Counted from the first letter of the stretch, positions 38,331 to 60,434 are shown. The stretch is DNA of 64,000 nt from an uncultured candidatus Brocadiaceae bacterium (GCA_964652775.1 CAZZAM010000001.1:128023-192022), one strand, 5' to 3'. A program made the numbers and translations. Notes: generated from the sequence alone by a model not told the origin.

Positions 38331-38333
38331 GAC

Positions 38334-40211
38334 TCAGTGTTTCCGCGTGACTTGAGGGCGTAGATTATCTGTGTTGGCCGCGTTCGTACGTACGGCATGA
38401 AACAAGCTGTCGCGGCCCGCGCTTAACAGTTCGAAATCCCGTTCTTCACCCATGGGCGCACACAAACGGATATCGTAAGCCGCGACGTTGGTATCATACG
38501 CGCCGTTACGCACGCGATCATAGTAGAGTTCACTGCCCCCCTGTTCACCATCGCCATTGTCATCCTTCCACGGTTCGACCAGTTTACTTCCGTCTTTGGA
38601 CACACAGTAGTACACCACGCCGCCGCGCTTGTGGGTTGGTACCGACTGAACCGCAACCCGACTGGGAATGGCGGTGCCGAATATCGGATAGGGATCGCCG
38701 CATTCCTCCATGTCGATGCCGTGCAATGCCCACACATGCGGACCACCGATCATGGGCGAAGGAGGTGACGTTGCCGAGGGGCAGTGGTAGTCGATGAGGG
38801 ATATATCCATGGCATCGGCCCGCACAGGCACTCCACGATCATTCACCCGATCAGTGACATAGCAGTAGCCGGGCGTGTAGAGCGGCGGAGCGTGATAACC
38901 GGTAATCATACCCGAGGTGTCGCCGGCCAGCGGAATGAGACTCGTCAAATCCGAACTCGGATCTGGGTGATAAAGTAACATGCAGCCCTTGCCATACATG
39001 CTCTGTCCGCGCTGATTGGGACTAGTGCCTGAGATAAACGCATTGCCGTTGAGCTGGGCAAGACGGCAATTGATCGTCTTCTTCGCCGGCAGACCTTCGT
39101 TGATATAGACCAGCGGCTGTCCGTAAGCATCCAGGATATCCACCTTCGTGTCGCCATCGAGATCCGACTTCAGGTAATTGTCCAACTGACCGCCAAGGTA
39201 GTCATCATGCCAGGGATCGCTCAAGGTCGCAACGTTGATCGTCTTGGAAGCACTAGTCTCACCCAACGAAACGCCTGATGCATCCGTACCGCTGTCGTAG
39301 GTGTAATTGCCGGCGGCAACACCATGACGCAAACCACGCAGATACGCATCTGCCGCATCGCGCGGCCGAGCATAACTGACATAAATGGGGAAGAGCTGGT
39401 TGATCCAACTCGCAAAGTAACCGAGGCCACCAGCAACGTGATAATCGCCGCTATATGGCGTCGGCTGCCGGGACATCAACATCGGGGCCACGCGGAAGTG
39501 ATCGAAAATCCTTTTCACTTCGCGTTCGCCCAGTGACACCGGTCCGGTGGCATCATAGTGCGCCCAGTCCTTTGCGGGCGCCGCGGTCACCGTCTGGGTC
39601 ATATTGGCCGCGTTAAACAGCGGTGGCAAATCCAGCCCAGCACACACCACATTCCCGTAGCTGCCGATGTGGTAGAAGCGATCGAGTTCGATGGTGCGCA
39701 TGGAATTCGCATTATTGAGCGCCAAGGTTTTGTCAGCTGCGACCATCGGGGTTCCCAAACTATAAAACAGGCCATTGCCAATCGCCCAGGTCGTCGGCGT
39801 ACTTGCCGGCGCCCACACCGTGTCGTTGTCCGGCGTCGGCAGTCCGGTTGCTGCGGCAACCTTGACCAGCCCATCATCAAAGCCGCCGCTTTCCGTCTGT
39901 ACTGGTGGCGCGGAATAAAAGCCCCTGGGATAGAAACCCATTTCGCTCCGGAACGTACGCAGGGCGGTATCAACCTTGTCCAACACCAATTGAGTCTGGG
40001 ATCGCTTGGCCGACTGGCGCACGCTCATCAGCCCGCCGTAGGTCATGGACGACAAAATCGCGATGATGCTGATGACCACCAACATCTCGATCAGCGAAAA
40101 CCCCCTCCGCCCAGACCCAGGACATGACGGCACACTTCCGAACCGGGAAACAAGCTCACATGAAGAAACGTATGGCATGGTACTGTGAATTGTGTCCATC
40201 CAGGCCATCAC
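38334..40211 (-). CDS. GspG-like pseudopilin with large insertions (625 aa)
   Basis: 'GRRG|FSLIEMLVVISIIAILSSM' is followed by 'AKRSQTQLVLDKVDTALRTFRSEMGFYP'. The later 'DGDTKVDILDAYGQPLVY' and C-terminal 'DFELLSAGRDS' mirror the GspG landmarks (DPWG.PY.Y / F.L.S.G.DG). Confidence 0.75.
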   Translation of the reverse strand: MMAWMDTIHSTMPYVSSCELVSRFGSVPSCPGSGRRGFSLIEMLVVISIIAILSSMTYGGLMSVRQSAKRSQTQLVLDKVDTALRTFRSEMGFYPRGFYSAPPVQTESGGFDDGLVKVAAATGLPTPDNDTVWAPASTPTTWAIGNGLFYSLGTPMVAADKTLALNNANSMRTIELDRFYHIGSYGNVVCAGLDLPPLFNAANMTQTVTAAPAKDWAHYDATGPVSLGEREVKRIFDHFRVAPMLMSRQPTPYSGDYHVAGGLGYFASWINQLFPIYVSYARPRDAADAYLRGLRHGVAAGNYTYDSGTDASGVSLGETSASKTINVATLSDPWHDDYLGGQLDNYLKSDLDGDTKVDILDAYGQPLVYINEGLPAKKTINCRLAQLNGNAFISGTSPNQRGQSMYGKGCMLLYHPDPSSDLTSLIPLAGDTSGMITGYHAPPLYTPGYCYVTDRVNDRGVPVRADAMDISLIDYHCPSATSPPSPMIGGPHVWALHGIDMEECGDPYPIFGTAIPSRVAVQSVPTHKRGGVVYYCVSKDGSKLVEPWKDDNGDGEQGGSELYYDRVRNGAYDTNVAAYDIRLCAPMGEERDFELLSAGRDSLFHAVRTNAANTDNLRPQVTRKH

Positions 40212-40297
40212 TAACAGAGGCCAGACAGATTGACCGCCCTGCGTATGACACGCGCTCGAGACCTATCTGAGCATTGAACCTTTAAGGAGCGCTTGAT

Positions 40298-40434
40298 TCA
40301 CACGGAGGAACGGAGGCAACGGAGCAGACCGGGTTTGCCGGTCTGATGTCCATCACCCGTGGATGAATAGGTCACAATGTGTAACCCAATCGCTCGAACT
40401 TCGTTACCTCCGTTCCTCCGTGTGAACTGCTCCG
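40298..40434 (+). repeat. Variant hairpin repeat element (AACGGAGG-type arms)
   Basis: TCACACGGAGGAACGGAGGCAACG (40299-40322) pairs with CGTTACCTCCGTTCCTCCGTGTGA (40402-40425) at 23 of 24 positions. There is an inner hairpin CAGACCGG-gtttg-CCGGTCTG at 40325-40345. The element lies in the divergent region upstream of the pseudopilin operon. Confidence 0.75.
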
Positions 40435-40553
40435 TCTAGGTTGAACCCCAGTCTGCCTGAGACCCGTGGCTCATTCGCCAGTCCAGCCCGCCCAACCTGG
40501 GTGTTCTCTACCTGCGGTCTCCCTGCATTCTCTGCTGCCGAGAGGATTCCTGC

Positions 40554-41894
40554 ATGCGCCCCCTGTTCCTGATATTCCTCGCCTCAATCACGATGGCTGC
40601 TCAAGCCCCAGCCAAACAACCCTCGGTCGAGGAGGGCGTCATCCTCGACCTGTGCAATCAATACCGCACCGATCAGCAGCGGATCCGTTTTCGTCTGGAA
40701 GACATGGTCCGACGCAATGAGCTCCCGACCGACAAAGCAACCAAGGACGCTTGGCTACTCGCCAATACCGGCCATCGGCAAGCCTTAGCACCGGTAGTTA
40801 TGAATCCGCTCCTCAATGCGGCTGCGCGGAATCTACTGATCTCCAAAGTCCTTCCCGAGCGACTCAAGGCCATTGACGCCATCGCTCCCCTCAAGGCGGT
40901 CAACTACACCCCGGACAGCAGTGGCCTGGTGGTGATTGGACGCGATGCCAGTTCAGCATCGGTAGCCTTCTTGACCGCCCTCATGGCAGTCACCAGTGAA
41001 AAGGAGATTCGCCCAGGATACGTCATGCCGAGCTTCACCGCCGCCCAGGTATTCCAACCCCAATGGCGGGAAGTTGGCATCGCGGTCATTGTGGAGGGAG
41101 CCAAGTTTCACACCGCCATGGTCTTCGGTTTGGGATCGGCCCAACGCTATGTCGGCGGAGTCGTTTTCGCCGACGCCAACCACAATGGTCGCTTCGATGC
41201 GGGTGAAGGCCGTCCGGGTATTGAGGTCAAGTCCGGCGGCATCGGGATGACCACCGGACCTGCAGGCGCGTGGTGGATGTTCTTGGACAATGGCGATCCC
41301 GTCACAGTGGAATTCAACGGCGAAGGATTCACGGCCAACCGTCCGGTGGTACGCGGCACGGCGAACCTCTGTATTGATTGGCGCATGCCGCTGGCAGCGG
41401 ACAATAAATCCGCCGACAAATTGATGGCGGACGTGAAACGGGCCGTCGGCCCGGATCCGCAACGGAAAGCCTTAGCCGCGCTGATCGCCGGAACCCGGGT
41501 CGCCATTCTTGATGAGGCACACCAGACCAAAGTGACCGCGCTTGTGGCTGGCATGATGGGCGAATACACGACGGCGGTCAAACGCTGCATGGATGCGCTC
41601 ACCGACACCCATCAGAATTTTCTCGCACGTTTCGACCGTATTAAAGCGACCTGCCGCGGGTCCTTCGTCGCTATGTTCAAGGAAATCGAGGACATTCATC
41701 GCTTGGGGCAACTGGTCGCCGCCTTCCAAGCAGCGCCCCCTGATCAGCAGACCAAGCAAGGGCCTGATTTACTCAGGGACATCACGAAAGCCCGCGAGGC
41801 CTCCGGCGAACCGCTGCTGGATCAGCAGTATGTTTTCATGCTCGAAGGCGTCGCTTCCGTCCTCAACACGTTGGAACCGGTGGCAAAACCTTAA
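40554..41894 (+). CDS. Secreted protein with a CAP/SCP-like N-domain (tentative)
   Basis: 446-aa ORF with the signal peptide MRPLFLIFLASITMAAQA. 'LCNQYR...LNAAARNLL...GIAVIVEGAKFHTAMVFG' resembles a CAP domain. 'DANHNGRFDAGEGRPGIEV' resembles an SdrD-B/CarboxypepD_reg-like segment. The C-terminus is helical. Confidence 0.55.
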   Translation: MRPLFLIFLASITMAAQAPAKQPSVEEGVILDLCNQYRTDQQRIRFRLEDMVRRNELPTDKATKDAWLLANTGHRQALAPVVMNPLLNAAARNLLISKVLPERLKAIDAIAPLKAVNYTPDSSGLVVIGRDASSASVAFLTALMAVTSEKEIRPGYVMPSFTAAQVFQPQWREVGIAVIVEGAKFHTAMVFGLGSAQRYVGGVVFADANHNGRFDAGEGRPGIEVKSGGIGMTTGPAGAWWMFLDNGDPVTVEFNGEGFTANRPVVRGTANLCIDWRMPLAADNKSADKLMADVKRAVGPDPQRKALAALIAGTRVAILDEAHQTKVTALVAGMMGEYTTAVKRCMDALTDTHQNFLARFDRIKATCRGSFVAMFKEIEDIHRLGQLVAAFQAAPPDQQTKQGPDLLRDITKAREASGEPLLDQQYVFMLEGVASVLNTLEPVAKP

Positions 41895-41908
41895 CCGCCA
41901 CCGTTAAC

Positions 41909-42625
41909 CTAGGGACGATAGATCCACGTACACGGGTCGGTCGCACTCCCCTTTTTGCCCCACGAATAGACATACGGATACGGTCGCGCTTTGGTGATGT
42001 CGCGACCGTTGCGCGCTTTCTCGTAATTGTTGGTCGCATCCCAATTCCAATCCGGCAAGGTCAGGTCAACGCTCGAGCCGTGCGTACAAGCGAAGGCGCT
42101 GCGCGTCGCCAACGGTAAGCTGAAGCGGTAGCGATAGGGATGCTTCCAGGGATCGAGCAACCGACGATCCGTATCACCAGGATCGTGGTGCGGAACGGGC
42201 AGCGGAAGACCTGCAGTGTCCAGCAAGGTAATAACGCCATCGATTACCGTGCCTGCCCGATTGTCGTGCCGACATAACGAGAAGGCTAATTCAGGATCAG
42301 TGGCCTCGTCGTAATGATGATAGGTGATTGAAGCAGGGACGGCTGGCAACGCAGGGCCGTAGGGATTCAATATCCCCAATGGCCCCGGGAACGGATAGCG
42401 TTTCTGGTCATCGTTTGATGCGTATTGTTCAATCGAACTTACCAACTGCGCCACGGCTTGTTTCGCCTCTGCCACCCGCGCATTTTCCCGCACCAAGCTA
42501 ATTGCTGGAATAAGCATACCAGCCAACACGGCAATGATCGAGATCACGATCAGCAATTCCACCAGGGTGAACCCCCAATGAGATCGCTGCGTCGGCAGGT
42601 AAGTACAACAATGGTGGCGGCTCAT
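41909..42625 (-). CDS. Orphan GspG-like pseudopilin
   Basis: ORF 41909..42790. The likely start is the ATG at 42625, which gives MSRHHCCTYLPTQRSHWG|FTLVELLIVISIIAVLAGML. 'LLDPWKHPYRY' and 'VYSWGKKGS' are GspG-like landmarks. Confidence 0.7.
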   Translation of the reverse strand: MSRHHCCTYLPTQRSHWGFTLVELLIVISIIAVLAGMLIPAISLVRENARVAEAKQAVAQLVSSIEQYASNDDQKRYPFPGPLGILNPYGPALPAVPASITYHHYDEATDPELAFSLCRHDNRAGTVIDGVITLLDTAGLPLPVPHHDPGDTDRRLLDPWKHPYRYRFSLPLATRSAFACTHGSSVDLTLPDWNWDATNNYEKARNGRDITKARPYPYVYSWGKKGSATDPCTWIYRP

Positions 42626-42717
42626 GCATCCTCGCGGCAGCTTTCGCCGTGGCCTTGGTGTCCACGAGTCGAAGGATGCAGAAACGTTTGCGGGCGGTGA
42701 CATACGGAAGTCCGTCA

Positions 42718-43662
42718 TCACCCTCCCCCGGTCCTGCGGAATATCCGACTGCTGAATACCGGGCCAAGCGTATGATGCAGCGGGATCCAACCAAGCTGCT
42801 GTATGGGGACATCCAAGCGTTGACCGGCCGGTAATCTGCGTGGCTCACCGCCAACCGGATGAACTTCCACACTGCCCCGACTCACCGCGATCGCCGTTCC
42901 CGCCGCTACGACCTGGATCCGCACGGCAGCATCCTGCACGGCAATGGAAGCGGCCTTGGTTTGCACAGCGAGGGGCACGTCTGTTGGCGACACTTCGCTG
43001 ATCAGTTCACCACGTACCAAGGAAAAGCTGCGTCGGAGACCTTCAACTTCTTCGACAACCGCTTCGGTATTTGCCGCCAACTCGCAGGTACCACCACGCA
43101 GCGATATCTTCACGTGGCTATCGGGTTCGATGTGCAGGCGATCTCCAACCCGCAGACTTGTGCCGGCCTTCAGGGCTATTGTCATTCCGTCACGCACGAT
43201 GAATGCGCTTCCTTCGGTTTGGGCGATGATCGGGACCAGGTATTGCGCGCGCAGCGCCATGGCACCCAGAGCCAATGTAATGATGCCCGTGACAATCAGA
43301 ATTGATGCGGCCGCAGCCCAACCAGCCCAGCGGCGGGTGACGTTGGTCCGTGCTGAGGGACGCGGCGGCGATGATGACGGACCAGGTGCCAACAGCCGCG
43401 CGCTATCAACCGATCCGGCAGCGGCATGGCGACCAATTTCAGCAAGATGCCCGTGCATGCGTGCCAGGACGGTAAATCGTGCGCGATAGGATGGATCGGA
43501 TTGCAGGAGCGCGTTGAGCTGGGCGACTGCGGCAGCGTCGGCATCGCCAGCGAGGTACTGCGTGGCGAGATCAGCGAATACATCGGCGGACTCGTCGAGG
43601 ATGAGAGGAGCACCTTCATTGCCACGGGCCACGCTGGAGCGTGGCGTTCCCAGGGGAGTCAT
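42718..43662 (-). CDS. FecR-family anti-sigma factor
   Basis: The ATG at 43662 overlaps the sigma-factor stop (ATGA). The N-terminus is 'LATQYLAGDADAAAVAQLNALLQSDPSYRARF'. There is one TM (WAGWAAAASILIVTGIITLALGAMAL) and a C-terminal FecR-like beta domain. Confidence 0.75.
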   Translation of the reverse strand: MTPLGTPRSSVARGNEGAPLILDESADVFADLATQYLAGDADAAAVAQLNALLQSDPSYRARFTVLARMHGHLAEIGRHAAAGSVDSARLLAPGPSSSPPRPSARTNVTRRWAGWAAAASILIVTGIITLALGAMALRAQYLVPIIAQTEGSAFIVRDGMTIALKAGTSLRVGDRLHIEPDSHVKISLRGGTCELAANTEAVVEEVEGLRRSFSLVRGELISEVSPTDVPLAVQTKAASIAVQDAAVRIQVVAAGTAIAVSRGSVEVHPVGGEPRRLPAGQRLDVPIQQLGWIPLHHTLGPVFSSRIFRRTGGG

Positions 43663-44192
43663 GGCGAGCCACGCTGGAGCATGGGGTTCCCAGGAACGCC
43701 CCCCTGCATGCATTGGGCGAGCGCTTTGTACACGCGGCTATAGGCGACCTGCACGGCACCTAGTGTCTTGCCGACGCGCAAGGCGATGGATGCGCCGTCC
43801 AGATTATCGGCAAAGCGCAAACGGATCAGCGACCGCGCAAATGGACTCAGACGATCCAGACAGCGTTCAAGCTGTTCGATATCCTCACGGCCGGACTCAG
43901 GATTATGCTGCGACCATTCCGACTCCAGCATCGCCAAGGTCGTATCATCAAGGCAACGATCGCGGCGGTGACTGCGTCGGGCTTCGTTCAGCGCGAGGTT
44001 GCGCGCTGTCGTGCGAACCCATGCCATGGCGTGTCCCGGGTGATCAAACTTATCACAAGCATCATTGGCGCGGATGAGCGTTTCCTGAAACACGTCCTCG
44101 CCCGCCGTGCGATCGGGCAACACGACAGCGATCCAACCGAGGATGGCACCACGGCGGTCGAGCAACAAATGAAGCAGTTCGTCGCGCTGCAC
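43659..44192 (-). CDS. ECF-type RNA polymerase sigma-70 family factor
   Basis: 177 aa. Region 2 is 'EDVFQETLIRANDACDKFD...AWVRTTARNLALNEARR'. Region 4 is 'LSPFARSLIRLRFADNLDGASIALRVGKTLGAVQVAYSRVYKAL'. Confidence 0.85.
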   Translation of the reverse strand: MQRDELLHLLLDRRGAILGWIAVVLPDRTAGEDVFQETLIRANDACDKFDHPGHAMAWVRTTARNLALNEARRSHRRDRCLDDTTLAMLESEWSQHNPESGREDIEQLERCLDRLSPFARSLIRLRFADNLDGASIALRVGKTLGAVQVAYSRVYKALAQCMQGGVPGNPMLQRGSP

Positions 44193-44238: not shown

Positions 44239-44265
44239 GGAACCGAGCTGTAAAGGCCGCGTATC
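44239..44265 (+). promoter_or_regulatory. Possible ECF-type promoter (GGAAC-N16-CGTAT)
   Basis: GGAACCGAGCTGTAAAGGCCGCGTATC lies about 130 nt upstream of the ATG at 44393. This is a motif match only. Confidence 0.25.
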
Positions 44266-44392: not shown

Positions 44393-47329
44393 ATGACCAC
44401 CTCAGATACTGACGACGAACAACTGCTTGCAGGCTGGCGAGCCGGTCAAGACGAGGTGGCACTCCAGACTCTCTACGCTCGTCATGCCCGACTGGTTGCC
44501 TCAACCTGCCGACGCTGCGGCTCCCCCGACGCTGATGAGGCAACGCAGGCCGTATTCATGGTGCTTATGCGGCGCTCTGGCTCAGTCCCCAACCGCTGCT
44601 TGGCTGGATGGCTGACCATTACTGCACGTCGTGTCGTTCATCATCAACACCGAGCTATTCAGCGTCGGCAACATCACGAACAGGAAGCAGCCATGAAACT
44701 CGCTTGTCAACCTCCGGAACTCGCTGAATCCTCATCCTGGGATGACGCTCGTCAGCACCTCGACGCCGCACTCGCCCAACTCAGCGCTGGCCGTCGCGAA
44801 GCCGTAGTACGCTACTTTCTCGAACAGAAGACCCAGTCAGTCGTAGCCACAGAACTTGGCTGTTCGACTGAGGCCGTGAAGACGCGCGTTCATGAAGGAT
44901 TGGAAAGTCTGCGTGCCTTTTTCACTCGCCGTGGTGTGCCCCTCAGCGTCGCCGCCATTTCCAGTGGTCTTGCTACCGAAATAGCTGCCGCCGAGCCGAA
45001 TCTCATGGCGACGTTCATCAATGTCTCAGCAACGCCAAGTTCCAACGCCTCAGCAACCATCCTCGCTCAGAAAGTTTGTAACGCCATGCTGCTCAACTCC
45101 ATCACCTGGACCGCTGCTGCCGTGATCGTCATCGGTTCAGGACTGACCGCCGCACTAGTCCTTGGTGCCGATACCCAACCGCCTCCGCCTCCAACTGTAA
45201 ATGCACAGCCCGAACTGGTCGAATTAACAAACTTCCGAAGTGGTATTTCACTAACCATCGATGGCCGCCTTGGTCGTGATTATGTCGTTGAACGACTCTT
45301 CCACGACGCCAAGGCCGATGACCACAGCGTCATCTATATGCGCAGTGGGACGAAAATGTCGCTGGCGCATAACGCCCTCAATGTCTACCAGGTCGATTCG
45401 AGCAGCCCCTTCAAGCAAGTGGGCATCAATGGTCCAGACGGCAAGCCCGACAGTGGCGACGAGGGAATCATCAATTTCAAAATTGACCGCGATCAGCAAA
45501 CGGGATCGAATTGGTCCGCTGGATATCAGGATCGCGGCAATACGAAATCCCAGCAATCTTGCCAAGCCTACGTGCATCCGTTCTCGCTTGCGGATTTAGA
45601 GTTTGAGCCTGGCAGCAAAGTTATTGGCAGTGTTGGCCTGCAGCCAGGCGCCGTTCCGGGACCCAACTTCTATTATCGTGGGCAACTCGACGCCTACGGC
45701 GATGAGTGGCACAGCCTGACGGTTGCCGACGACGACAGCTCATTTCAGGGTGCTCACTACACCCACAAGCATTCCAGTGACGGGAAGGTTTTTCTCTTCG
45801 TCGTCGATCCTAAAACGCCCTGTCTCAGTGTGCGTGCGCTTACCGACCAAGCACAATTTTACACCACGCCGGCAAAGACCTATTTTTTGCCGCGCATTCA
45901 TGAGCAGACCACGTACATTGCGAACGACGTCGAGTTGCAGCTACATAATCTTTGCAATGAGCGGACGATCTTTTACCGCATCGATCAAGGGGAGGCGCAG
46001 AACTACCAAGCACCACTGCGGAGCGAGAGCTTCTCCGATGGGGCTCATGTTCTCGAGTACTGGATCGACGGTGGACCGCACCGGACCCGTGCCGTGGTCA
46101 AAAACCCCGTCTCGCCCGGCGCCCAAGAAACGCATCCTCGGCTGCTGTGGGCTGATGACGCTGAACTCGCCACGATCCGTGCGCGACTTGGTCGAGAGCC
46201 ATATAAAACCATCTACGATGGAAGCCGAACGTCTGCGAAAGGTGCTGGGCACACGGCTATTGATGCGATCCTTGGGCGTGGCTCACGTAACTGGGTGAGT
46301 GCAGCGCTGGGCAACGCTTTCATTGCAAAAATCGAAGGCCCAGAGGCCAAAACGCCAACCGGAACCCGCACGTTCGCCAGCTATGCCAAACACGTACTGC
46401 TCGACAACAAACTGAGCTTCGATCCGGTCGGCATGGAGTTGAATCACAACTTTGCTCCGATGCCCACCGCCGAGTGGAATGCCTACGGCTATTACGTGGT
46501 GAATGAAGTGTACGATCTGGCCCTGGCCTACGACTTGCTGATCAGCTTCTATCGCGCCGACCAAGCGCCAGGCGGCATTACCCCAATCGAGGATCTGAAG
46601 ATACGCGATCTGCTAGCGCATTGGATCGCGATTCAGACGTACGAACTGCGTGGTTTTGAATCCGCGCCGTGGCCTCCGCGGGCAGATCCCGGCGTCGGGA
46701 TGTGGGATACCGCACGGTTGTCTGGCGCAGCTGTAGCCGCCATGGCCATGCCCGGCTACGACACGCCCTATTACGGCACCAGCGGTTTTGATGGAAAGAG
46801 TACGGCGAAGCACCAGGGCATTCCGTTCACTGGACAAGCGTTCACCTGGAAGGAACTGTTCATCGACGCCAACCAAGAGGTCGCAACGACGCCGCGCCTC
46901 TGCCGCCGATTCAACCAACTTGACGGCGGTCTTATTACCGCCAACGGACAGTTTTTTGATCGGCGTGATTATTTCGCGAATCCTCTCATGGGTCACTGTT
47001 TCCAGATCTTGGCGAACACCGCTGTCAGGACCTGTGGGAAACGCTGGCCTCTGCTTGAGCGCGCATTTGCACATGCAGCAGCCGGCCTGCTGGAAGGCGG
47101 AAAAGTTGCCGACGCATCAGACAAAGGGCCGGCCATGTTCGCCCTGCCATTGATCGTGAACCACCAGTTTCCCGCCATCGCAAACCTCATGCGCGACAAC
47201 ATAGACAAACAACCCGTCAATTACGACAACGGCAGGCGCAACGTTAACTCTCGTGGTTATATACTGTACACGGTCGGCGTGCTGGGCCTGATCTGGTACC
47301 AGGATGACATTGGGAAGGAACGGCCCTAA
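44393..47329 (+). CDS. ECF sigma factor fused via one TM helix to a large heparinase II/III- or alginate-lyase-like extracytoplasmic domain
   Basis: 978 aa. Region 2 is 'ATQAVFMVLMRR'. Region 4 is 'REAVVRYFLEQKTQSVVATELGCSTEAVKTRVHEGLESLRAFF'. The TM is 'ITWTAAAVIVIGSGLTAALVLG'. 'HPRLLWADDAELATIRARLGREPYK' is typical of the N-terminus of heparinase II/III-type lyase folds. Confidence 0.75.
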   Translation: MTTSDTDDEQLLAGWRAGQDEVALQTLYARHARLVASTCRRCGSPDADEATQAVFMVLMRRSGSVPNRCLAGWLTITARRVVHHQHRAIQRRQHHEQEAAMKLACQPPELAESSSWDDARQHLDAALAQLSAGRREAVVRYFLEQKTQSVVATELGCSTEAVKTRVHEGLESLRAFFTRRGVPLSVAAISSGLATEIAAAEPNLMATFINVSATPSSNASATILAQKVCNAMLLNSITWTAAAVIVIGSGLTAALVLGADTQPPPPPTVNAQPELVELTNFRSGISLTIDGRLGRDYVVERLFHDAKADDHSVIYMRSGTKMSLAHNALNVYQVDSSSPFKQVGINGPDGKPDSGDEGIINFKIDRDQQTGSNWSAGYQDRGNTKSQQSCQAYVHPFSLADLEFEPGSKVIGSVGLQPGAVPGPNFYYRGQLDAYGDEWHSLTVADDDSSFQGAHYTHKHSSDGKVFLFVVDPKTPCLSVRALTDQAQFYTTPAKTYFLPRIHEQTTYIANDVELQLHNLCNERTIFYRIDQGEAQNYQAPLRSESFSDGAHVLEYWIDGGPHRTRAVVKNPVSPGAQETHPRLLWADDAELATIRARLGREPYKTIYDGSRTSAKGAGHTAIDAILGRGSRNWVSAALGNAFIAKIEGPEAKTPTGTRTFASYAKHVLLDNKLSFDPVGMELNHNFAPMPTAEWNAYGYYVVNEVYDLALAYDLLISFYRADQAPGGITPIEDLKIRDLLAHWIAIQTYELRGFESAPWPPRADPGVGMWDTARLSGAAVAAMAMPGYDTPYYGTSGFDGKSTAKHQGIPFTGQAFTWKELFIDANQEVATTPRLCRRFNQLDGGLITANGQFFDRRDYFANPLMGHCFQILANTAVRTCGKRWPLLERAFAHAAAGLLEGGKVADASDKGPAMFALPLIVNHQFPAIANLMRDNIDKQPVNYDNGRRNVNSRGYILYTVGVLGLIWYQDDIGKERP

Positions 47330-47347: not shown

Positions 47348-48451
47348 TCAGGGCCGGATGGCATGCTTGATCACAAACGCCAGCAACGCCTCGCATTGAA
47401 AAAACTTCGGAGCCATCGGATCAGAGACGCTCGTATGGCCGCCACCGGGGATAACGATGACCTGCATGTCACCGCCAATGGCCTTGTAGCGTTTGGCGAT
47501 TTCGGCTGAGTTCTTCTCGAGCGGCACGGTGCCGTCTTTATCGCCGTGGACGTGCAGGATGGGAATATGCGCCTTGGCAATCGGCGCGAGGCGTTCGATC
47601 GGATTGTGCTGCGACAACAGCTTGTCCAACTCTGCGACGGTCATTCCGTACGCCGTCGCGGCCTTCTCCATGCCGGGATAGCTACGCAGATCGCCAACCG
47701 GATAGATGCCAGCGATCGCAGCAACGCACTCGGGATGTTCCGCGGCCCAGTTGTAGAGCATGAGACCACCGCGACTTTGTGGCAGCAGCACCACCTTCTT
47801 GGCAAGTCCATGCTTGCTGGTCGCCACGTCGTAGAACTCGGTGAACGCGGCGCGGCCAGCCGGATTGCCCATGCTTTCGCCGACCGAAACAGACACGACG
47901 GCGATGCCGGCATCGAACAATCGTTTGCACATCCACGCGTTGGCTTGGCTGAGTCCATTGGGCGCGTACCAGACCCAGGGCAGCGGCCCCTTGTTCGTCC
48001 GCTGCGTGGGCACGTAGATCACTGCCTGCGTTGGCTTGCCACCAATGAGCGCGGCCAGCAGAACCGTGACAGCCGTGCTGCCCATCATGGTCGCATTCCA
48101 GTACTCCGGCTTTTTCGCTTTCAGAACCAGCGTGCCGGCACTCCAAGTTGGCTCAAAGCCACTGAGAAAACCAACATAATCCATTGCCTTGCGCAGCGTC
48201 ATGCCCTTGGCGAGTGGAACCACCCACGGCTTGGTGGCATCACCCTCGAAGGTCACCTGCATGGGGATTCCGGTCTTCTGCGTCAGATCAAGGACAACGT
48301 CATGGACCGATTTCCACTGTTCGTACGTTTCGCTCAGCGGTTTGTTCCACCCATCGCCAGGCAGTTCAGCCGAATGCAGTGCTATGACCATACTCAGCAA
48401 GCTCCCGATAACACTGATACAGAATGTTGAGCGGATCATGTCAGATCCCAC
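47348..48451 (-). CDS. Secreted alpha/beta hydrolase (dienelactone hydrolase/prolyl-oligopeptidase-like)
   Basis: 367 aa with a signal peptide (FCISVIGSLLSMVIALHSA). It contains 'LLPQSRGGLMLYNWAA' and 'ILHVHGDKDGTVPLEKNS...GGGH'. Confidence 0.65.
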   Translation of the reverse strand: MGSDMIRSTFCISVIGSLLSMVIALHSAELPGDGWNKPLSETYEQWKSVHDVVLDLTQKTGIPMQVTFEGDATKPWVVPLAKGMTLRKAMDYVGFLSGFEPTWSAGTLVLKAKKPEYWNATMMGSTAVTVLLAALIGGKPTQAVIYVPTQRTNKGPLPWVWYAPNGLSQANAWMCKRLFDAGIAVVSVSVGESMGNPAGRAAFTEFYDVATSKHGLAKKVVLLPQSRGGLMLYNWAAEHPECVAAIAGIYPVGDLRSYPGMEKAATAYGMTVAELDKLLSQHNPIERLAPIAKAHIPILHVHGDKDGTVPLEKNSAEIAKRYKAIGGDMQVIVIPGGGHTSVSDPMAPKFFQCEALLAFVIKHAIRP

Positions 48452-50106: not shown

Positions 50107-52368
50107 CTAGAACGCGTCGAAGGAGATCATCTGCAGATCGACGCCAAAAGACGTAAGCATAGCCGTGCATGCCTCGATCATCTTCGGTGGTCCGCACAGA
50201 TAAAACTCAATCGCGCGCGGGTTGGCGTGTGTCGCCAGATATTTCTCACGCACGACCTCATGAATGAACCCAGTTGGACCATCCCAGGCATCCCCTTCCT
50301 GCGGTTCGCTGAGCGCGGGATGGAACGTGAAGTTGCGGTTACGAGCGGCGATCGCAGCAAAGTCCTCGTGATAGAATAATTCGCGGCGCGAACGCGCTCC
50401 GTACCAATAACTCACTCGACGCGCGGTTGGCTCCTGACCGAACAACTGCAATAGATGCGCACGAATCGGCGCCATGCCCGCGCCACCGCCGATGTAAACC
50501 ATCTCGCGCTGGGTCGGCTTGATGTGGAAATCACCGAAGGGACCAATGCCAGTCACCGTGTCGCCGGGCTTGAGGCTGAACACCCACGCTGAACCGACAC
50601 CCGGCGGGATGGTGCCTCCTGGTGGCGGCGTTGCGATGCGGATGTTGAAGCGCAGGCCGCGTTCATTGGGCCCACTGGCGATCGAATAATTATTGCGACG
50701 ACTCGTGCCATCGTGGCTGGCGGCTAACTCCAGCAAACCTTGTGCGCGCCAGGATGCCGCAAAAGGTTCAGGAATGATCAGGTCACGGAAAGCGATGCGC
50801 CCGTAATTCGGAATGTCGAGCTGCAGGTAATCACCCGGCGTAAATGCACAGGCACCGTCAAGCGGCTCTAACACCAACTCGGTGATGAACGTGGCGACCA
50901 AGCGATTGGAGACGACCCGGAAGCGCAACGTGCGTTGTTCACGCGCGCCAGCTCCACCGGCCGCCGCAACGTTCAACCACAGGGTGCCATCGCGGTTCTC
51001 AAGTTGGTAGGTTCGCAGCGCGCGACACACCGGCGCCCGCGCTGGCGATCCGTCGCTCAGTTCGAAGCGCCCGTTGTGCTTCGGACATTCGATCTGCCGA
51101 CCCTTCACTAAACCTTCAGCTAGGTGACTGTTACCGTGGGTACAGATGCCGTCCGTCGCGTGGTACGCGCCTTCATCGGTCAAATAGAGCGCATAGGTAC
51201 GCTTGCCATGATCGCAGCGGATGACCTGACCGCGCGCAAGTTGCGCTGCCGCACCGACGGCCAACCAACCCGCGTTATCGGGTATCCCGGAGACGGCATA
51301 CTGAGTCGGTGATGATCGCGACGGCGGCGTGGGCAGTTGACGATGCACGCACCAGGTTGGTTCACGTCGCTGACGCAGTAGCGCCGGAATGATCTCACGG
51401 AATGCGGCAACGATGCTTGGATAGGGCGTCGGCATGTCGGCCTTCACCGCGGCATGCAGTCTGGGGAGATTATGATACGGCACGAGGGGAAACATATGGT
51501 GCTCGACGTGATAATTCATATTCCAGTACAAGTAGCGGTGCAGCCAGTTCATGTACACCGTGCGGCAGTTGAGCCGGTGATCGAGCACGTCTTCAGCCAG
51601 GCCAGCGTGCTGCGTCAGACCGTACATCGGCATCAACCACGAACCATAGAGGTTCGGCAAACCAATGAACATGAGCGGCAAGATGCTGCCACTGACCAGA
51701 GCTGTTGCGATGACCGCCGCGTAAATCAACGCCGAGATCCGCGCCTTGAAGAAGACCTTGCCGTATTCGCTTTCGGGCACGTACATGCGCTCGTCCGGAT
51801 GCATGACGCCAACGCAATGCATGGCGAGGCGGGTGAAATACATCTTCATCGCCATGACGCCGAAGAAACTCAAGATGAGACCAGTGAAATCCGGCGGACG
51901 AGGCACCGCAATCTCAGGATCACGGCCGGTAATGATCGTGTCGCTGTGATGACGGGTGTGGCTCCAACGCCACGGCGTCGATTCGCGCATGACCATGAAC
52001 GAAGCGATCTCGTACAATACATTGTTCATCCAATCGGTCTTGAACGCCGTGCCGTGACTCGACTCATGCCAACGTGAGTCAGATGTCGTTCCGTAAATGA
52101 CGCCGTAGATCGCAAACGGAATAATCGCCCACCACGACGGCCACAACACATACCCAGCCCAACCGGAAACCCCCAGCAGCGTGAACCAGATCAGCGTATC
52201 GCGGATCGCCGGGCCATCGCGACGCTCAAGCAACCTGCGCATCTCATCACGCGGCACGTGGCAGGTGTACCAATCAGCTTCGGCAAGTCCGCGTTCGATC
52301 GCGCGGCGGGCATTGGCGTCGGAAAGACTGTAGTCGGTGACGGAAGCAGGGGCAGTGGCGGTAGTCAT
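50107..52368 (-). CDS. Three-domain fusion: membrane fatty-acid-desaturase-like di-iron domain, Rieske [2Fe-2S] domain, and NqrF-like FAD/NAD(P)H reductase
   Basis: The start is at the ATG at 52368 (MTTATAPAS). The His boxes are 'HESSH', 'HTRHH' and 'HVEHH'. The Rieske motif is 'CTHGNSH...CPKHNGRF'. The FNR module has 'RNNYSIAS' and 'GGGAGMAPIRAHL', and ends 'YLCGPPKMIEACTAMLTSFGVDLQMISFDAF', which closely resembles the NqrF C-terminus. Confidence 0.8.
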   Translation of the reverse strand: MTTATAPASVTDYSLSDANARRAIERGLAEADWYTCHVPRDEMRRLLERRDGPAIRDTLIWFTLLGVSGWAGYVLWPSWWAIIPFAIYGVIYGTTSDSRWHESSHGTAFKTDWMNNVLYEIASFMVMRESTPWRWSHTRHHSDTIITGRDPEIAVPRPPDFTGLILSFFGVMAMKMYFTRLAMHCVGVMHPDERMYVPESEYGKVFFKARISALIYAAVIATALVSGSILPLMFIGLPNLYGSWLMPMYGLTQHAGLAEDVLDHRLNCRTVYMNWLHRYLYWNMNYHVEHHMFPLVPYHNLPRLHAAVKADMPTPYPSIVAAFREIIPALLRQRREPTWCVHRQLPTPPSRSSPTQYAVSGIPDNAGWLAVGAAAQLARGQVIRCDHGKRTYALYLTDEGAYHATDGICTHGNSHLAEGLVKGRQIECPKHNGRFELSDGSPARAPVCRALRTYQLENRDGTLWLNVAAAGGAGAREQRTLRFRVVSNRLVATFITELVLEPLDGACAFTPGDYLQLDIPNYGRIAFRDLIIPEPFAASWRAQGLLELAASHDGTSRRNNYSIASGPNERGLRFNIRIATPPPGGTIPPGVGSAWVFSLKPGDTVTGIGPFGDFHIKPTQREMVYIGGGAGMAPIRAHLLQLFGQEPTARRVSYWYGARSRRELFYHEDFAAIAARNRNFTFHPALSEPQEGDAWDGPTGFIHEVVREKYLATHANPRAIEFYLCGPPKMIEACTAMLTSFGVDLQMISFDAF

Positions 52369-52378
52369 GGGGATTGGT

Positions 52379-53422: not shown

Positions 53423-53495
53423 GGCTGCCTCAGAGAAACAACATCGCAACGTTCAAGACTTACGCGAAAATTTCTAGAACATGCCAGCGGGTTGA

Positions 53496-53669
53496 CAGGG
53501 CCAACGGCCCGAACCCATCCCAGCCCAGGGCAACGCCCTGGGGAATGAGATGCGTAGATATGAGCCCTGTAGGGGCGATCTATTGGGTCGCCCCTACAGG
53601 GCTCACCGAATATTTGAACCATACCCAGGGCGTTGCCCTGGGCTGGGATAGGTCGGGCCGTTGGCCCTG
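53496..53669. repeat. Compound palindromic element (~174 nt, three nested hairpins)
   Basis: The outer arms CAGGGCCAACGGCCCGA...CCCAGGGCAACGCCCTGGG and CCCAGGGCGTTGCCCTGGG...TCGGGCCGTTGGCCCTG are complementary. The central hairpin is GAGCCCTGTAGGGGCGA-tctattggg-TCGCCCCTACAGGGCTC. Confidence 0.8.
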
Positions 53670-53809
53670 CAGGAGAAACGCAGACACGAGTCCGAATTAT
53701 TCTCGCCTGCTTTCTCGTCATGACATCTGGCCGCATGCCGATCAACCTCCTGGGGCGGCTAGGTCATCGGGAATTTGCGTGTGGTCAATGCCATGGTTGG
53801 GGTAGAGGG

Positions 53810-53928
53810 GAATGTAGAATGCTCGAATGTAGAATGCTCGAATGTGTGGGAAACTTCCGTGCCCGGCGTTTTTTAAGGGGTATCCACTCGAGCATTCGAG
53901 CATTCGAGCATTCGAGCATTCTACATTC
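53810..53928. repeat. Long inverted repeat whose arms are tandem GAATGCTC/GAGCATTC octamers
   Basis: The left arm is GAATGTAGAATGCTCGAATGTAGAATGCTCGAATG. The right arm is (GAGCATTC)x4-TACATTC. GAATGTAGAATGCTCGAATG (53810-53829) is exactly complementary to 53909-53928. Confidence 0.85.
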
Positions 53929-53972
53929 AAACTGCCTGGAGCCGCCGCGCATCTGTGCTATGAGGACGCACC

Positions 53973-56781: not shown

Positions 56782-56784
56782 GCC

Positions 56785-58271: not shown

Positions 58272-60434
58272 TTATGGCGTGATCGGAACCTGTGCTGACA
58301 GTTCTTTCGCGTAGGCGTCCGCCTTGGGTCGCCAGGTCGTCCACATGACGTTCAGGAATTCGTTGCCCCAGCAGTACTCTACAAAGTTTTTGCCAATGCT
58401 GGGCACGCCCTGTTCTTTGACCCAGCGATCGACGTAGTCGAAGAATGGTGGATGTTTCCAGATGTCCTGCGCACCCATGAGTCGCGCCGCGAGGGCGGGA
58501 CCGATCCAGGTGACGCTGCAGATTTTGCGATAGCCGAAGCTCGGACCGTCGAGTTTGCCGTCCGGATCACGAATGTCTTTGTCGCCACTGGCAGTCATGC
58601 CCTTGGTCATGAGCTGATGGAAGATCACCTGTTGATTGCCCGCATCGTTGCCCCACAGCGGCTTGCCCTGCGGATATTCCGGCGTGGGCACCCCGTACCA
58701 CGTATGTGCATCCTCACCAAACTTGTCGACCGTGCCCGTACGCGAATTGGAGGATGCGACCAGCGCTGGTTGCTCCTGCATCGCTTGGTCATCAAGCATG
58801 ATTCCTGCAAACAGGATCGGCCAGCGACGAGCATTGCCGAAGCCGCCATATCCGCGCCACGCATCGCCGTTGTTCATGCTGATCGCATGTAGATCAATGC
58901 CAAGCTGAACCAGACGAACCGTCAGCGCCTCGCGCTCGGGAATATCTAACAGCACCATCATCGCCATCGTCGAAGCGTCATTGCCAAAATAATACGGCTG
59001 CATGTTCTCACGCGGATGCATCGTCGCGTTTGAGTTTCCCTTGATGGCAATGTGGTCCAACCACACGCGCTGCATCACGGTGCTGACATCGGGCAGGCGC
59101 ACGCCGCTCGGCGGTGGCAGCTTGGGCAGGCGCTTCCATTGCACCTGCGACTCGGTCTTGATCGGTTTATCGCCTGCCACATACGGTGGACGGAACGCGT
59201 CTGCCGGCGGAATCTTGTCGACTACGGTCAATACAGCAGCGGTTTCCAATCCTTCGTAAGCGCCACCGATGCGCGGCGATTCCATACCGATCGTGGACAC
59301 CAATGAACGCACGCCCTCCAGTCGCAATGGGAATGTTGCCCGCAATGTCTCGTCGTACTTGGGACTGAATTTCCACTCCTGACGATAGCCCTGTTTGGCA
59401 GACGGAACTGGATCGACCATGGATCCATGGCGCACACCATCCCACCCCGGACTCACCGCGTTAATCACCACCGGACCAAGCACCCAGTAATCGCCGTTCA
59501 CGAATTGGCCACTGGCAACTGGTTCAGCAAACGTCCAGGTGATGCCGTACTGCGTGATCGAGTCCGTCTTCGTTGCGACGACATGATTGACGGCAGCAAC
59601 TGGCGCCGGGAAGATCGCGCGATTCGGCACTGGCCGCTGATCTGCGCCACGCAGCACGAACGGCAGACAACACGCAATCCCAATGAGTCCGACAGCCACA
59701 CCCGCTGCAGCCGGGCGAGTAGACATGAACAACTGTATTTTCTGGATCACGGTGAGGCGAACAGTCGTCGTTGGCAGATTACCGCCAGCAGCCGACGCAG
59801 CGATGGAGCCTGCCGCCGCCACCACCTGTGGTGACGCCGCATAGGCCGGCTGCGCTGCGAGCAGACTAGCGATAACCGTTGTGGTGACCACCGCACCGCG
59901 CGCACCCAGCAGATCGCGCAACCGCGACCGCGCGCGTGAGAGTCGTTGCGACACCGTATTTTCACTCGCGCCGACAGCGGTGGCGACCTCAGCCTGGGAC
60001 AGACCAGCAAAATAATGCAGGTCGATGACTTCGCGATCGGCCTCGGGCAGGCGTGCCACCAGCGCGCGCACGTCCTCGGCGAGATCATTCGGTTGCGGGG
60101 TCGAACGCTGCAGCGTCATGGCTAATTCCTCTCGGCGTTGCCGCCGTCGATCACTGCGCCGCACCCGCAGACACGCGATCTGCACCAAGCGTCCAACCCA
60201 TGCGGCAAAGGGGACACTGCCGTCGAAGCGGCTGGCCGAGCGCGCGAGCTGGAGGAATGCCTCCTGCACCGCGTCATCAGCATCAGCCTGATTACCCAAA
60301 GCGCGTCGGGCCTGGGTGTACGCCTGATCAGCACAGGCGCGCAGGGCGCGATCCAATGCCGCAGTGTCACCACCTTGCGCGTAGGCGAGGTAGTCGGCAG
60401 CGCCGGGATGCGCGTCAACGACAGTTGGATCCAT
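58272..60434 (-). CDS. ECF sigma factor fused via a TM helix to an extracytoplasmic domain paralogous to the neighbouring lipoprotein
   Basis: 720 aa. Region 2 is 'DADDAVQEAFLQLARSASRFDG..FAAWVGRLVQIACLRVRR'. Region 4 is 'REVIDLHYFAGLSQAEVATAVGASENTVSQRLSRARSRLRDLL'. The TM is 'AAAGVAVGLIGIACCLPFVL'. The C-domain begins 'ITQYGITWTFAEPVASGQFVNGDYWVLGPV'. Confidence 0.8.
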   Translation of the reverse strand: MDPTVVDAHPGAADYLAYAQGGDTAALDRALRACADQAYTQARRALGNQADADDAVQEAFLQLARSASRFDGSVPFAAWVGRLVQIACLRVRRSDRRRQRREELAMTLQRSTPQPNDLAEDVRALVARLPEADREVIDLHYFAGLSQAEVATAVGASENTVSQRLSRARSRLRDLLGARGAVVTTTVIASLLAAQPAYAASPQVVAAAGSIAASAAGGNLPTTTVRLTVIQKIQLFMSTRPAAAGVAVGLIGIACCLPFVLRGADQRPVPNRAIFPAPVAAVNHVVATKTDSITQYGITWTFAEPVASGQFVNGDYWVLGPVVINAVSPGWDGVRHGSMVDPVPSAKQGYRQEWKFSPKYDETLRATFPLRLEGVRSLVSTIGMESPRIGGAYEGLETAAVLTVVDKIPPADAFRPPYVAGDKPIKTESQVQWKRLPKLPPPSGVRLPDVSTVMQRVWLDHIAIKGNSNATMHPRENMQPYYFGNDASTMAMMVLLDIPEREALTVRLVQLGIDLHAISMNNGDAWRGYGGFGNARRWPILFAGIMLDDQAMQEQPALVASSNSRTGTVDKFGEDAHTWYGVPTPEYPQGKPLWGNDAGNQQVIFHQLMTKGMTASGDKDIRDPDGKLDGPSFGYRKICSVTWIGPALAARLMGAQDIWKHPPFFDYVDRWVKEQGVPSIGKNFVEYCWGNEFLNVMWTTWRPKADAYAKELSAQVPITP

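Follow-up and report, generated by a model that had tools for sequence, protein, structure and literature searches.

The window, a stretch of 64,000 nucleotides from an uncultured candidatus Brocadiaceae bacterium, encodes an ECF sigma factor tethered to the membrane, a 'one-component' type found in Planctomycetota and Verrucomicrobiota. Membrane-tethered sigma factors are a known class; what is new is that the outer domain is enzyme-like and has been fused to sigma modules repeatedly and independently. The gene is one uninterrupted ORF of 978 codons, from an ATG at 44393 to a stop at 47329. The first-pass annotation had described a single polypeptide in which an ECF sigma factor is joined through one transmembrane (TM) helix to a large extracytoplasmic domain, and the single ORF, the domain matches and the identical protein found elsewhere bear this out. 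The features of the locus are listed in Table 1.

Table 1. Layout of the fusion gene and of the elements discussed with it; positions are counted from the first nucleotide of the window.
Feature	Position	Strand	Basis
Whole gene: ECF sigma, linker, TM, Pro-rich spacer, family X ectodomain	44393..47329	+	Single ORF, 978 aa; identical protein on two other assemblies
ECF sigma core: sigma2 ~aa 27–91, sigma4 ~aa 123–175	44459..44917	+	TIGR02937, Sigma70_r4; Sigma70_r2 weak
Conserved cytoplasmic linker, aa 176–236, with conserved Met M232 (nt 45086–45088) just before the TM	44918..45100	+	Conservation in module relatives
Single TM helix ITWTAAAVIVIGSGLTAALVLG, aa 237–258, signal-peptide-like, V-x-G before A-D	45101..45166	+	Hydrophobicity; kept in module relatives
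Pro-rich spacer ADTQPPPPPTVNAQP, aa 259–273, containing the fusion junction	45167..45211	+	Module homology stops and family X homology starts
Beta-rich half of the ectodomain, aa ~274–570	45212..46102	+	AF2 beta strands, pLDDT mostly above 90; conservation
Helical toroid half, aa ~575–978, opening with HPRLLWADDAELATIRARLGREPYK	46115..47326	+	AF2 helices; Foldseek 6hzn, 7bjt, 9o3q
Putative ECF-promoter-like motif GGAAC-N16-CGTAT, 129 nt upstream of the ATG	44239..44264	+	Present by sequence
Divergent conventional ECF sigma gene (43659–44192) and FecR-domain gene (42718–43713)	42718..44192	-	Pfam Sigma70_r2/r4_2 and FecR
Second sigma-linker-TM-ectodomain protein, 720 aa, type B module, family Y ectodomain	58272..60434	-	Pfam sigma domains

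At its N-terminus the protein carries a genuine ECF (group 4) sigma factor, with sigma2 and sigma4 only and a score above the cut-off of the curated model. TIGR02937 (sigma70-ECF) matched aa 23–174 with 62.3 bits (cut-off 42.9), and Sigma70_r4 (34.6 bits) and r4_2 (33.7 bits) both scored above their Pfam cut-offs. The ECF regions 2 and 4 previously placed within residues ~1–190 are thus confirmed, though Sigma70_r2 scored 21.1 bits, under Pfam's 24-bit cut-off. No sigma3 or sigma1 domain was matched with Pfam or NCBIfam, and the sigma part fell far below the cut-offs of the NCBIfam planctomycete subfamilies TIGR02984 and TIGR02989. In the stretch that separates sigma4 from the TM, a Pfam search with E up to 1 gave no match to an anti-sigma domain of either the ZAS zinc-finger or the FecR N-terminal type, and the linker of about 60 aa has no HxxxCxxC motif. 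Exactly one segment of the 978 aa is strongly hydrophobic (19-residue windows from aa ~228–243), which upholds the single TM helix of the earlier description. The ectodomain of ~705 aa that follows would lie outside the membrane (C-out topology), since its free homologues carry signal peptides. A lipoprotein signal was considered and rejected, the protein having no lipobox.

The first-pass annotation had feared that a sequencing or assembly frameshift at ~44960–45130 joined a sigma gene to a downstream secreted-protein gene. Frameshifted calls do occur in this class of genes: P0098, P0099 and P0100 show junk-like tails after sigma4 or the TM. However, the identical 978-aa product is called on two further independent assemblies. 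The sigma domain, linker and TM lie in one frame and are 53–55% identical in P0097 and P0098, whose ectodomains differ; the N-terminally truncated P0101 is 49% identical over its part of this module. Further related modules, in L006, L007 and L008 (49–51% over the best segment), carry other ectodomains, e.g., an FGE-sulfatase. The linker-TM-spacer region (aa 186–275) is kept in frame across independent metagenomes, with 43–46% identity to P0097, P0098 and P0101 and 41% to P0123. After the TM, the ectodomain has neither a signal peptide nor a start codon of its own, and P0054 shares the sigma-TM-ectodomain architecture. An artefact is extremely improbable, and we reject it as far as sequence data allow; the assemblies and the in-frame conservation in relatives dispose of the earlier concern.

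The ectodomain belongs to an uncharacterised secreted family, here called family X, which consists of a beta-rich half and an (alpha/alpha) toroid. A search recovered 96 homologues, the closest being free proteins with signal peptides and 52–62% identity; an exhaustive profile search gave 307 representatives, mainly from Planctomycetota and Verrucomicrobiota. The fused copy matches the family profile over its full length (897 bits) and, judging by its retention of 92 of the 94 positions conserved at ≥85%, looks like an intact enzyme-type domain and not a degenerate or specialised sensor. Family-invariant residues crowd the beta-rich half (GDEWH, DDD, SDG, YTTP), and the invariant or near-invariant H581, R632, Y700, Y713, R738, D739, Y789, Y860, N875 and N923 are all present. 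By sequence, the ectodomain is a member of no described lyase family, the heparinase II/III, alginate-lyase and DUF4962 families (PL12/15/17/21) included: Pfam and NCBIfam gave no match to it, Pfam at E up to 1 gave no lyase-family match in 51 homologues, and across 52 aligned family X members the only Pfam matches were to accessory Ig, dockerin, PKD and sigma domains. Searches of PDB sequences, with the single sequence and with the profile, returned nothing meaningful.

The AF2 model of the ectodomain (pLDDT 93.7) places the beta-rich half of ~300 aa first (ectodomain residues ~25–310) and the helical half next (315–708), with the chain ending in helices. Foldseek aligned about 435–449 columns with DS-epimerase 1 (6hzn, probability 1.00, E 7e-4), a PL17 alginate lyase (7bjt, 0.99) and a chondroitinase (9o3q, 0.99), so that an (alpha/alpha) fold like that of uronate-polysaccharide lyases and epimerases is supported for the modelled toroid. 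The heparinase/alginate-lyase-like domain proposed earlier therefore stands as a toroid fold, but not as a match to any Pfam or PDB sequence. The motif quoted for an N-terminal toroid, HPRLLWADDAELATIRARLGREPYK, does open the toroid (aa 581–605, where the helical half begins), but this toroid is the C-terminal half and follows the beta-rich one; the HPRLL motif is no more than the toroid's first element. In heparinase II/III, PL15 and PL17 enzymes, the toroid is followed by a C-terminal beta-sandwich. The order is reversed here, and the likeness to known toroid enzymes, lyases as well as epimerases (PL17, DS-epimerase 1, chondroitinase and heparinase II/III relatives), concerns the (alpha/alpha) toroid of the C-terminal ~400 aa and conserved Tyr, His, Arg and Asn as candidate catalytic residues, but does not extend to a relationship at the sequence level.

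Nearly all family X members are free secreted proteins. A sigma fusion was found in two of ~300 clusters, those of the protein described here and of P0054, and in 0 of 30 species-representative genomes; other representatives with a long N-terminal extension carry PKD, Big, PPC or unknown domains there and no sigma domain. The two fused members have sigma parts only 28% identical, each on a module 55–60% identical to relatives with other ectodomains. This indicates independent fusions, in which family X would have been captured twice by separate sigma modules. The fusion also appears to be evolutionarily labile, since P0065 is 89.5% identical to P0054 and has lost the sigma part. The free P0065 and P0072 start exactly at the conserved Met, the module TM serving as their N-terminal signal sequence, and in L003 ~35 nt of linker-coding DNA remain upstream of the free gene. 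Such lability fits weak selection or a fortuitous fusion (Pinto et al., PMC7671368). No sigma genes adjoin the free family X genes in L002, L003, the P0072 contig or the 30 genome loci. Even between modules with only 28–31% identity, linker and TM are conserved; in 31 of 38 related modules the TM has a Met before it (28% expected), and a conserved G-S-G/C lies at the helix centre. An origin of the P0054 TM from the ectodomain's own signal peptide was rejected, for the second fusion in the window has the same MST(R/H)P-TM on a different ectodomain.

This second fusion lies in the same genome 11 kb from the sigma-X gene, and its module is 60% identical to that of P0054. Its ectodomain family, family Y, has at least 1900 homologues, among which sigma fusion is rare, and Foldseek against the PDB gave no fold assignment for it. 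Families X and Y are fused to each other in P0183 and adjoin in L043 and L064. The window is also rich in glycan-degradation genes, including one for a GH88 enzyme; GH88 acts on lyase products. The conventional ECF/FecR pair described earlier as divergent from the fusion gene was confirmed by Pfam.

The most likely mechanism, which we hold tentatively and at slightly less than an even chance, is that of a tethered sigma factor with a lyase-like glycan sensor, released by proteolysis. Tethering to the membrane would hold the sigma factor away from RNA polymerase. Binding or processing of an acidic glycan substrate by the family X domain would make the ectodomain cleavable in or near the Pro-rich spacer, and a site-2 protease would then cut the TM helix with its conserved G-S-G/C centre. 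The released sigma-linker fragment would switch on a regulon, probably of glycan-utilisation genes together with its own gene. The lyase-like module would stand in for the usual sensor, as the first-pass annotation proposed. The occurrence of family X on two different modules, the second sigma-TM fusion in the window, whose family Y is fused or adjacent to family X elsewhere, and the abundance of glycan-degradation genes in the window argue for a non-random coupling of glycan machinery to sigma modules. Proteolytic release has precedents in IutY, by experiment, and in SCO4117, as a proposal (PMC8999054), and also in RsgI (PMC10328401, PMC12203970).

Several observations count against the glycan-sensor model. 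There is no fused anti-sigma domain to keep the sigma factor inactive, the Sigma70_r2 score is under Pfam's cut-off, sigma fusion is rare in family X and labile, and the ectodomain resembles an intact enzyme. The check for site-1/site-2 protease genes suggested earlier covered larger ORFs of the window and found none there. The putative autoregulatory promoter, which also weighs here, is unsupported. The motif GGAAC-N16-CGTAT noted upstream of the gene is indeed present, but it is neither enriched nor conserved in relatives: with one mismatch it occurs at 3 sites in the window against 2.83 expected, and the form GGAAC-N15-17-CGTA at 3 sites against 1.07 expected, a result equalled in 10 of 100 shuffles. 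The relatives L006, L007 and L001 have no motif of the GGAAC-N16-CGT type in their upstream regions, and a generic scan for sigma-70 promoters and terminators was uninformative.

Two other readings accept the fusion as real and give it a different meaning. An unlikely one puts the enzyme first: a duplicated sigma-linker-TM cassette landed by chance before the gene of a secreted enzyme, the product is an anchored or secreted glycan-active enzyme, and the sigma part is constitutive, inactive or independent of the ectodomain. Exactly such a pattern is documented in Planctomycetes (Pinto et al. 2020, PMC7671368), and the free swapping of ectodomains between modules 55–60% identical, the rarity of fusions within both families, the recent loss of the sigma part in P0065 and the full family conservation of the ectodomain all agree with it. 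However, one ectodomain family was captured by two divergent modules, the partner family Y is also sigma-fused only 11 kb away, which is unlikely under random capture, and the conservation of linker and TM across such divergent modules implies a constrained tethering function.

The second reading, a distinctly unlikely one, takes the TM for a signal peptide that is internal and cleavable. A cut by signal peptidase I after V-L-G (aa 256–258) would free a soluble periplasmic or secreted enzyme, and a site-2 protease would clear the stub, yielding one sigma factor per exported enzyme. Activation would then report export and not ligand binding, and an internal start at M232 might also yield free enzyme. 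The segment has the anatomy of a signal peptide: the conserved Met and a basic/polar n-region lead into a hydrophobic core, positions -3 and -1 hold small residues, and A-E/D and a Pro-rich stretch come next; free family members (P0065, P0072) begin at this same Met, and the linker remnant in L003 agrees with this. RseP clears signal peptides (PMC8144685). On the other hand, a hydrophobic stretch of 22 aa is long for a cleavable signal peptide, and the Shine-Dalgarno-like GAAAG 11 nt from the ATG at 45086 is weak for an internal start. In its widest form, which we regard as improbable, export of the enzyme-like ectodomain would itself trigger the signal peptidase cut, stub clearance and sigma release; the conserved Met would let genes flip between fused and free secreted forms in evolution, possibly also by internal initiation, and the sigma-X and sigma-Y proteins would couple expression of a single glycan pathway to the delivery of two cooperating enzymes, with X lyase-like.

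Under the preferred reading of a tethered, glycan-responsive sigma factor, an ectodomain that senses or processes an acidic glycan would provide a one-protein route from polysaccharide to transcription. Glycan regulation in such polysaccharide-degrading bacteria is poorly understood. To our knowledge, proteolytic activation of ECFs with membrane-spanning extensions has been experimentally characterised only for IutY, and SCO4117 has been partly studied. The locus is a tractable test case, with a defined junction, a confidently modelled ectodomain, natural unfused controls and a partner fusion in the same genome. Family X with its ~300 clusters and family Y with its at least 1900 homologues may each represent a new family of carbohydrate-active enzymes. 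The capture and release of secreted proteins by sigma-linker-TM cassettes at a signal-peptide-like helix refines the published 'fortuitous insertion' model.

A literature search turned up no publication in which a lyase-like domain is joined to a sigma factor. Pinto et al. 2020 (PMC7671368) had already described planctomycete ECFs whose C-terminal extensions are unrelated to one another and have been swapped. The fusion protein shares with them a conserved sigma2/sigma4 part bearing unrelated extensions of variable length, the lack of an adjacent dedicated anti-sigma gene, several copies per genome (two in the window) and, probably, the phylum-level setting. It differs in that the duplicated unit is demonstrably sigma, linker and TM, not sigma2-sigma4 alone, and in that the extension is an enzyme-like family of ~705 aa with a lyase-type toroid instead of WD40-like repeats, none of which were matched by Pfam; moreover, family X appears on two separate modules, and reversion to free secreted proteins is documented. 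A conserved Cys in sigma2 and another in sigma4 are reported for ECF57 (PMC8999054). The corresponding residues (in AACRR of sigma2 and ELGC of sigma4) are kept only in the close clade of the fusion protein, not in more distant module relatives; the type described by Pinto et al. is possibly group ECF57 (Casas-Pastor et al. 2021), to which the protein may belong.

Among membrane-spanning systems, the sigma/anti-sigma hybrid IutY of Pseudomonas putida (ECF243), activated through regulated proteolysis by Prc and RseP (PMC8999054), is likewise one polypeptide that starts with an ECF sigma, crosses the membrane once and has its C-terminal domain in the periplasm. IutY has a FecR-type anti-sigma and periplasmic domain and a TonB-dependent transducer, whereas in the protein described here a short linker leads to an ectodomain that resembles a glycan enzyme. 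SCO4117 of Streptomyces coelicolor (ECF52), for which proteolytic activation has been proposed (PMC8999054), shows the same succession of sigma, TM, Pro-rich region and carbohydrate-related extracytoplasmic domain; unlike the present protein, ECF52 members are actinobacterial, carry a zinc-finger anti-sigma between sigma and TM, and end in a small carbohydrate-binding module. The RsgI/SigI systems of Clostridium thermocellum, in which CBM or PA14 sensors sit on a single-pass protein subject to RseP-dependent intramembrane proteolysis (PMC10328401, PMC12203970, PMC6852018), would be the functional counterpart, with polysaccharide sensing in control of an alternative sigma factor. RsgI and SigI are two proteins; they include a juxtamembrane domain that is autoproteolytic, and their sigma factor is of another class, whereas the version in the window would unite sensor and sigma factor in one polypeptide with no recognisable anti-sigma domain.

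The window protein is encoded by a single uninterrupted ORF of 978 codons. An ECF sigma factor occupies residues ~23–175 (TIGR02937, 62.3 bits with a cut-off of 42.9); the Sigma70_r4 and r4_2 models pass their cut-offs, and Sigma70_r2 falls short (21.1 bits vs 24). The hydropathy profile contains one strongly hydrophobic segment, ITWTAAAVIVIGSGLTAALVLG (aa 237–258), and this helix is followed by ADTQPPPPPTVNAQP and a ~705-residue ectodomain, which includes the motif HPRLLWADDAELATIRARLGREPYK at aa 581–605 and has zero matches in Pfam or NCBIfam. Hence, the combination of a sigma factor, a TM helix and a large C-terminal part in one polypeptide, noticed in the first-pass annotation, is real, as is the neighbouring divergent pair of ECF and FecR genes. 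No fused anti-sigma domain was detected in the protein. Because the ectodomain is homologous to secreted proteins, the topology is N-in/C-out.

Genes and sequence motifs of the window
Coordinates	Strand	Feature
854-3232		Beta-helix/transglutaminase protein
11822-15076		GH9 with CelD_N domain
15410-18415		GH42-like gene
22407-23453		GH88 unsaturated glucuronyl hydrolase
25039-27603		GH9 with CelD_N domain
31287-35099		1270-aa protein, sole match E1_FCCH
35096-36310		Prepilin-type N-terminal methylation motif protein
36750-38330		Prepilin-type N-terminal methylation motif protein
38334-40211		Prepilin-type N-terminal methylation motif protein
41909-42790		Prepilin-type N-terminal methylation motif protein
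42718-43713	-	FecR-domain gene, divergent from window-protein gene
43659-44192	-	ECF sigma gene, divergent from window-protein gene
44239-44264		GGAAC-N16-CGTAT motif upstream of window-protein gene
44393-47329	+	Window protein, 978 aa
47348-48451		Secreted alpha/beta hydrolase with Peptidase_S9-like matches, convergent neighbour of window-protein gene
48324-48348	-	Second GGAAC-N16-CGTA copy
50107-52551	-	814-aa fusion: fatty-acid desaturase, Rieske 2Fe-2S, NAD-binding oxidoreductase domain
53973-56781		Three tandem Esterase-family (PF00756) genes, of five in the window
58272-60434	-	Second sigma-linker-TM-ectodomain gene, 720 aa (family Y)
60527-62200	-	Sigma-less family Y paralogue
62291-64000		Second beta-helix protein

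The first-pass annotation also considered a frameshift merging two genes. Such an artefact, or a misassembly, was rejected: the 978-aa product is called identically, with the same neighbours, on two more independently assembled groundwater-metagenome contigs (ERZ1292634 and ERZ1292639), and the suspected region, comprising the linker and the TM helix, is kept in frame across unrelated metagenomes. The first 260–275 aa are 53–55% identical to the database relatives P0097 and P0098 and 49% identical to the N-terminally truncated P0101; the best segments at loci L006, L007 and L008 give 49–51%, and the linker–TM–spacer alone (aa 186–275) is 41–46% identical to these relatives. Homology to the ectodomain family (family X) starts ~15 residues past the TM helix, where the mature chain of free homologues begins, and the stretch behind the helix is too short to hold a further start codon and signal peptide. 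As a separate observation, P0098, P0099 and P0100 carry Arg/Gly-rich, out-of-frame-looking sequence after sigma4 or after the TM helix, which points to frameshifts in how this class of genes is called in some public assemblies.

Sequence comparison indicates that the sigma–linker–TM part is a mobile module. Its closest relatives bear differing extracytoplasmic parts: an FGE-sulfatase domain in P0101 (Pfam), whose junction sequence resembles that of L007, an unrelated ~700-aa ectodomain in L006 and L008, and a short unknown one in P0097. More distant relatives carry DUF1080 and Big_5 ectodomains. In the second such gene of the window, the ectodomain (family Y, 430 aa, motif QYGITW...NGDYWVLGP) has no match in Pfam. 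The two window modules are collinear over sigma factor, linker and TM helix with 31% identity, and the tethered architecture is thus ancestral to both. Extension swapping of this kind is largely known already: planctomycetal ECF duplicates bear unrelated C-terminal extensions, and the model of Pinto et al. 2020 has a duplicated sigma factor inserting next to other genes (PMC7671368).

A sequence search with aa 261–978 found 96 homologues, and an exhaustive profile search yielded 307 family X representatives at 50% clustering, 231 of them with E below 1e-30. The hosts are chiefly Planctomycetota and Verrucomicrobiota (a Nibricoccus isolate among them), together with one Omnitrophota genome and a few members of other phyla. 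Nearly all members are free proteins of ~730 aa with an N-terminal signal peptide; some add Ig, PKD, PPC, dockerin, CHB_HEX_C or T9SS-tail domains, as secreted proteins acting on glycans typically do. No Pfam model matched family X in any of 52 members, and PDB sequences gave no match even with the family profile.

The AlphaFold2 model of the ectodomain, built with confidence from the family alignment (pLDDT 93.7, pTM 0.94), consists of a beta-rich half (ectodomain residues ~25–310) followed by a helical half (315–708). Its sole high-probability Foldseek matches in the PDB, over ~435–449 columns each, were human dermatan-sulfate epimerase 1 (6hzn, E 7e-4, prob 1.00), the PL17 oligoalginate lyase 7bjt (prob 0.99) and the chondroitinase 9o3q (prob 0.99). 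DS-epimerase 1 combines an (alpha/alpha)6 toroid with a beta-sandwich, and the structural relatives of this enzyme include heparinase II/III, alginate lyase and chondroitinase AC (PMC8006597). Hence, the lyase-like fold proposed earlier is supported for the helical half, whereas membership of a lyase family was not borne out by sequence in Pfam or the PDB. Compared with toroid lyases and epimerases, the domain order is reversed, with the beta part first. Of 94 columns with at least 85% conservation, the window copy keeps 92; among these are invariant polar and aromatic residues of both halves, namely GDEWH, DDD, SDG and YTTP (beta half) and H581, R632, Y700, Y713, R738/D739, Y789, Y860, N875 and N923 (toroid half). 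The copy thus resembles an intact, functional family member and not a decayed one.

Of all family X sequences seen, sigma fusion is confined to two, the window protein and P0054 (987 aa, locus L001, JGI metagenome). Their ectodomains are 35% and their sigma cores 28% identical. The nearest relatives of the window ectodomain are the free proteins P0002–P0006 (52–62% identity), and those of the P0054 ectodomain are the free P0065 (89.5%) and P0072 (82%). The sigma–linker–TM part of P0054 is 60% identical to the window module bearing family Y instead. The divergent sigma cores and this kinship indicate that family X was joined to two module lineages.

The fused and free forms meet at a conserved Met (M232 in the window protein). 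A Met lies at most ~14 residues ahead of the TM helix in 31 of 38 module proteins vs 28% expected by composition, a count taken over related sequences and not an independent probability. It is followed by basic or polar residues, a hydrophobic core, small residues at −3/−1, and then A-E/D and a Pro-rich stretch, so that the segment is built like a signal peptide. The secreted proteins P0065 and P0072 begin at this Met, with the module's TM serving as their signal sequence. At the P0065 locus (L003, 300–360), ~35 nt ahead of the start codon match the linker-coding DNA of L001 (6280–6320), and beyond them an unrelated gene replaces it. The direction of change is thus readable in the P0054 lineage as a recent loss of the sigma part, and the two forms interconvert at the conserved Met.

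Family Y comprises at least 1911 homologues, and its AF2 model is confident (pLDDT 91.4). It has no Pfam domain, no PDB fold matches its model significantly (best E 0.32), and the family may constitute a new fold or enzyme family. P0183 (1168 aa) joins an N-terminal family Y part to a following family X part in one chain; over ~440 aa, the former shares 28% identity with the Y ectodomain of the window (E 4e-35). Y and X genes also adjoin in MAGs of different phyla, Tepidisphaeraceae L043 (1–534 and 2917–5145) and Deltaproteobacteria L064 (917–2686 and 2752–6087). In the window, the sigma-less Y paralogue is a direct neighbour of the sigma-Y gene. X and Y are probably parts of one pathway. The glycan-utilisation content of the window is dense, chiefly at 854–29867 and 52379–57513, and besides the tabulated genes includes an SSF symporter, LacI and AraC regulators, GFO/IDH/MocA and epimerase genes and an aldose 1-epimerase.

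The proposed GGAAC-N16-CGTAT promoter motif is present, but a promoter role is unsupported: motifs of the GGAAC-N15-17-CGTA type number 3 in the window vs 1.07 expected, which is not significant. The second copy lies ~45–130 nt inside the annotated 5′ end of the convergent hydrolase gene, and could be its promoter if the real start is further downstream. The prepilin-type proteins cluster at 35096–42790, beside the conventional ECF/FecR pair, an arrangement typical of gene neighbourhoods in Planctomycetota. The desaturase–Rieske–oxidoreductase fusion has the predicted architecture of a self-sufficient desaturase or oxygenase.

To the architecture, module conservation, fold and recurrence established for the window protein, a putative mechanism of proteolytic release can be added. 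Tethered to the membrane, the sigma factor would be kept from reaching RNA polymerase; the ectodomain, which we hypothesise to be a sensor, would undergo a glycan-dependent event that licenses cleavage near the Pro-rich spacer, and a site-2 protease would next cut the TM helix. This helix has a conserved G-S-G/C centre, and site-2 proteases favour helix-destabilising features of this type. Against release stand the missing anti-sigma domain, the rarity and lability of the fusion, the unsupported promoter and the finding of no protease gene among the window ORFs scanned. The fusion might instead be functionally neutral, merely anchoring or exporting an enzyme. However, the fusion and adjacency of X and Y, and the sigma tethering of both in the window genome, argue against purely random capture. 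Another alternative is an export-coupled pro-sigma factor, the first cut being made by signal peptidase at a segment with signal-peptide anatomy.

ECF sigma factors with a membrane-spanning extension are a known class, as is planctomycetal extension swapping. New here are the enzyme-like family X and its capture on two occasions by different sigma modules, the X–Y pairing and the signal-peptide-like hinge of interconversion. Proteolytic release has precedents: IutY is cut by Prc and RseP, and proteolytic activation has been proposed for SCO4117 (ECF52), which resembles the window protein in its Pro-rich region and has a carbohydrate-binding domain (PMC8999054). RsgI anti-sigma factors, which sense polysaccharides via carbohydrate-binding modules (CBM, PA14), are cleaved by RseP (PMC10328401, PMC12203970, PMC6852018).
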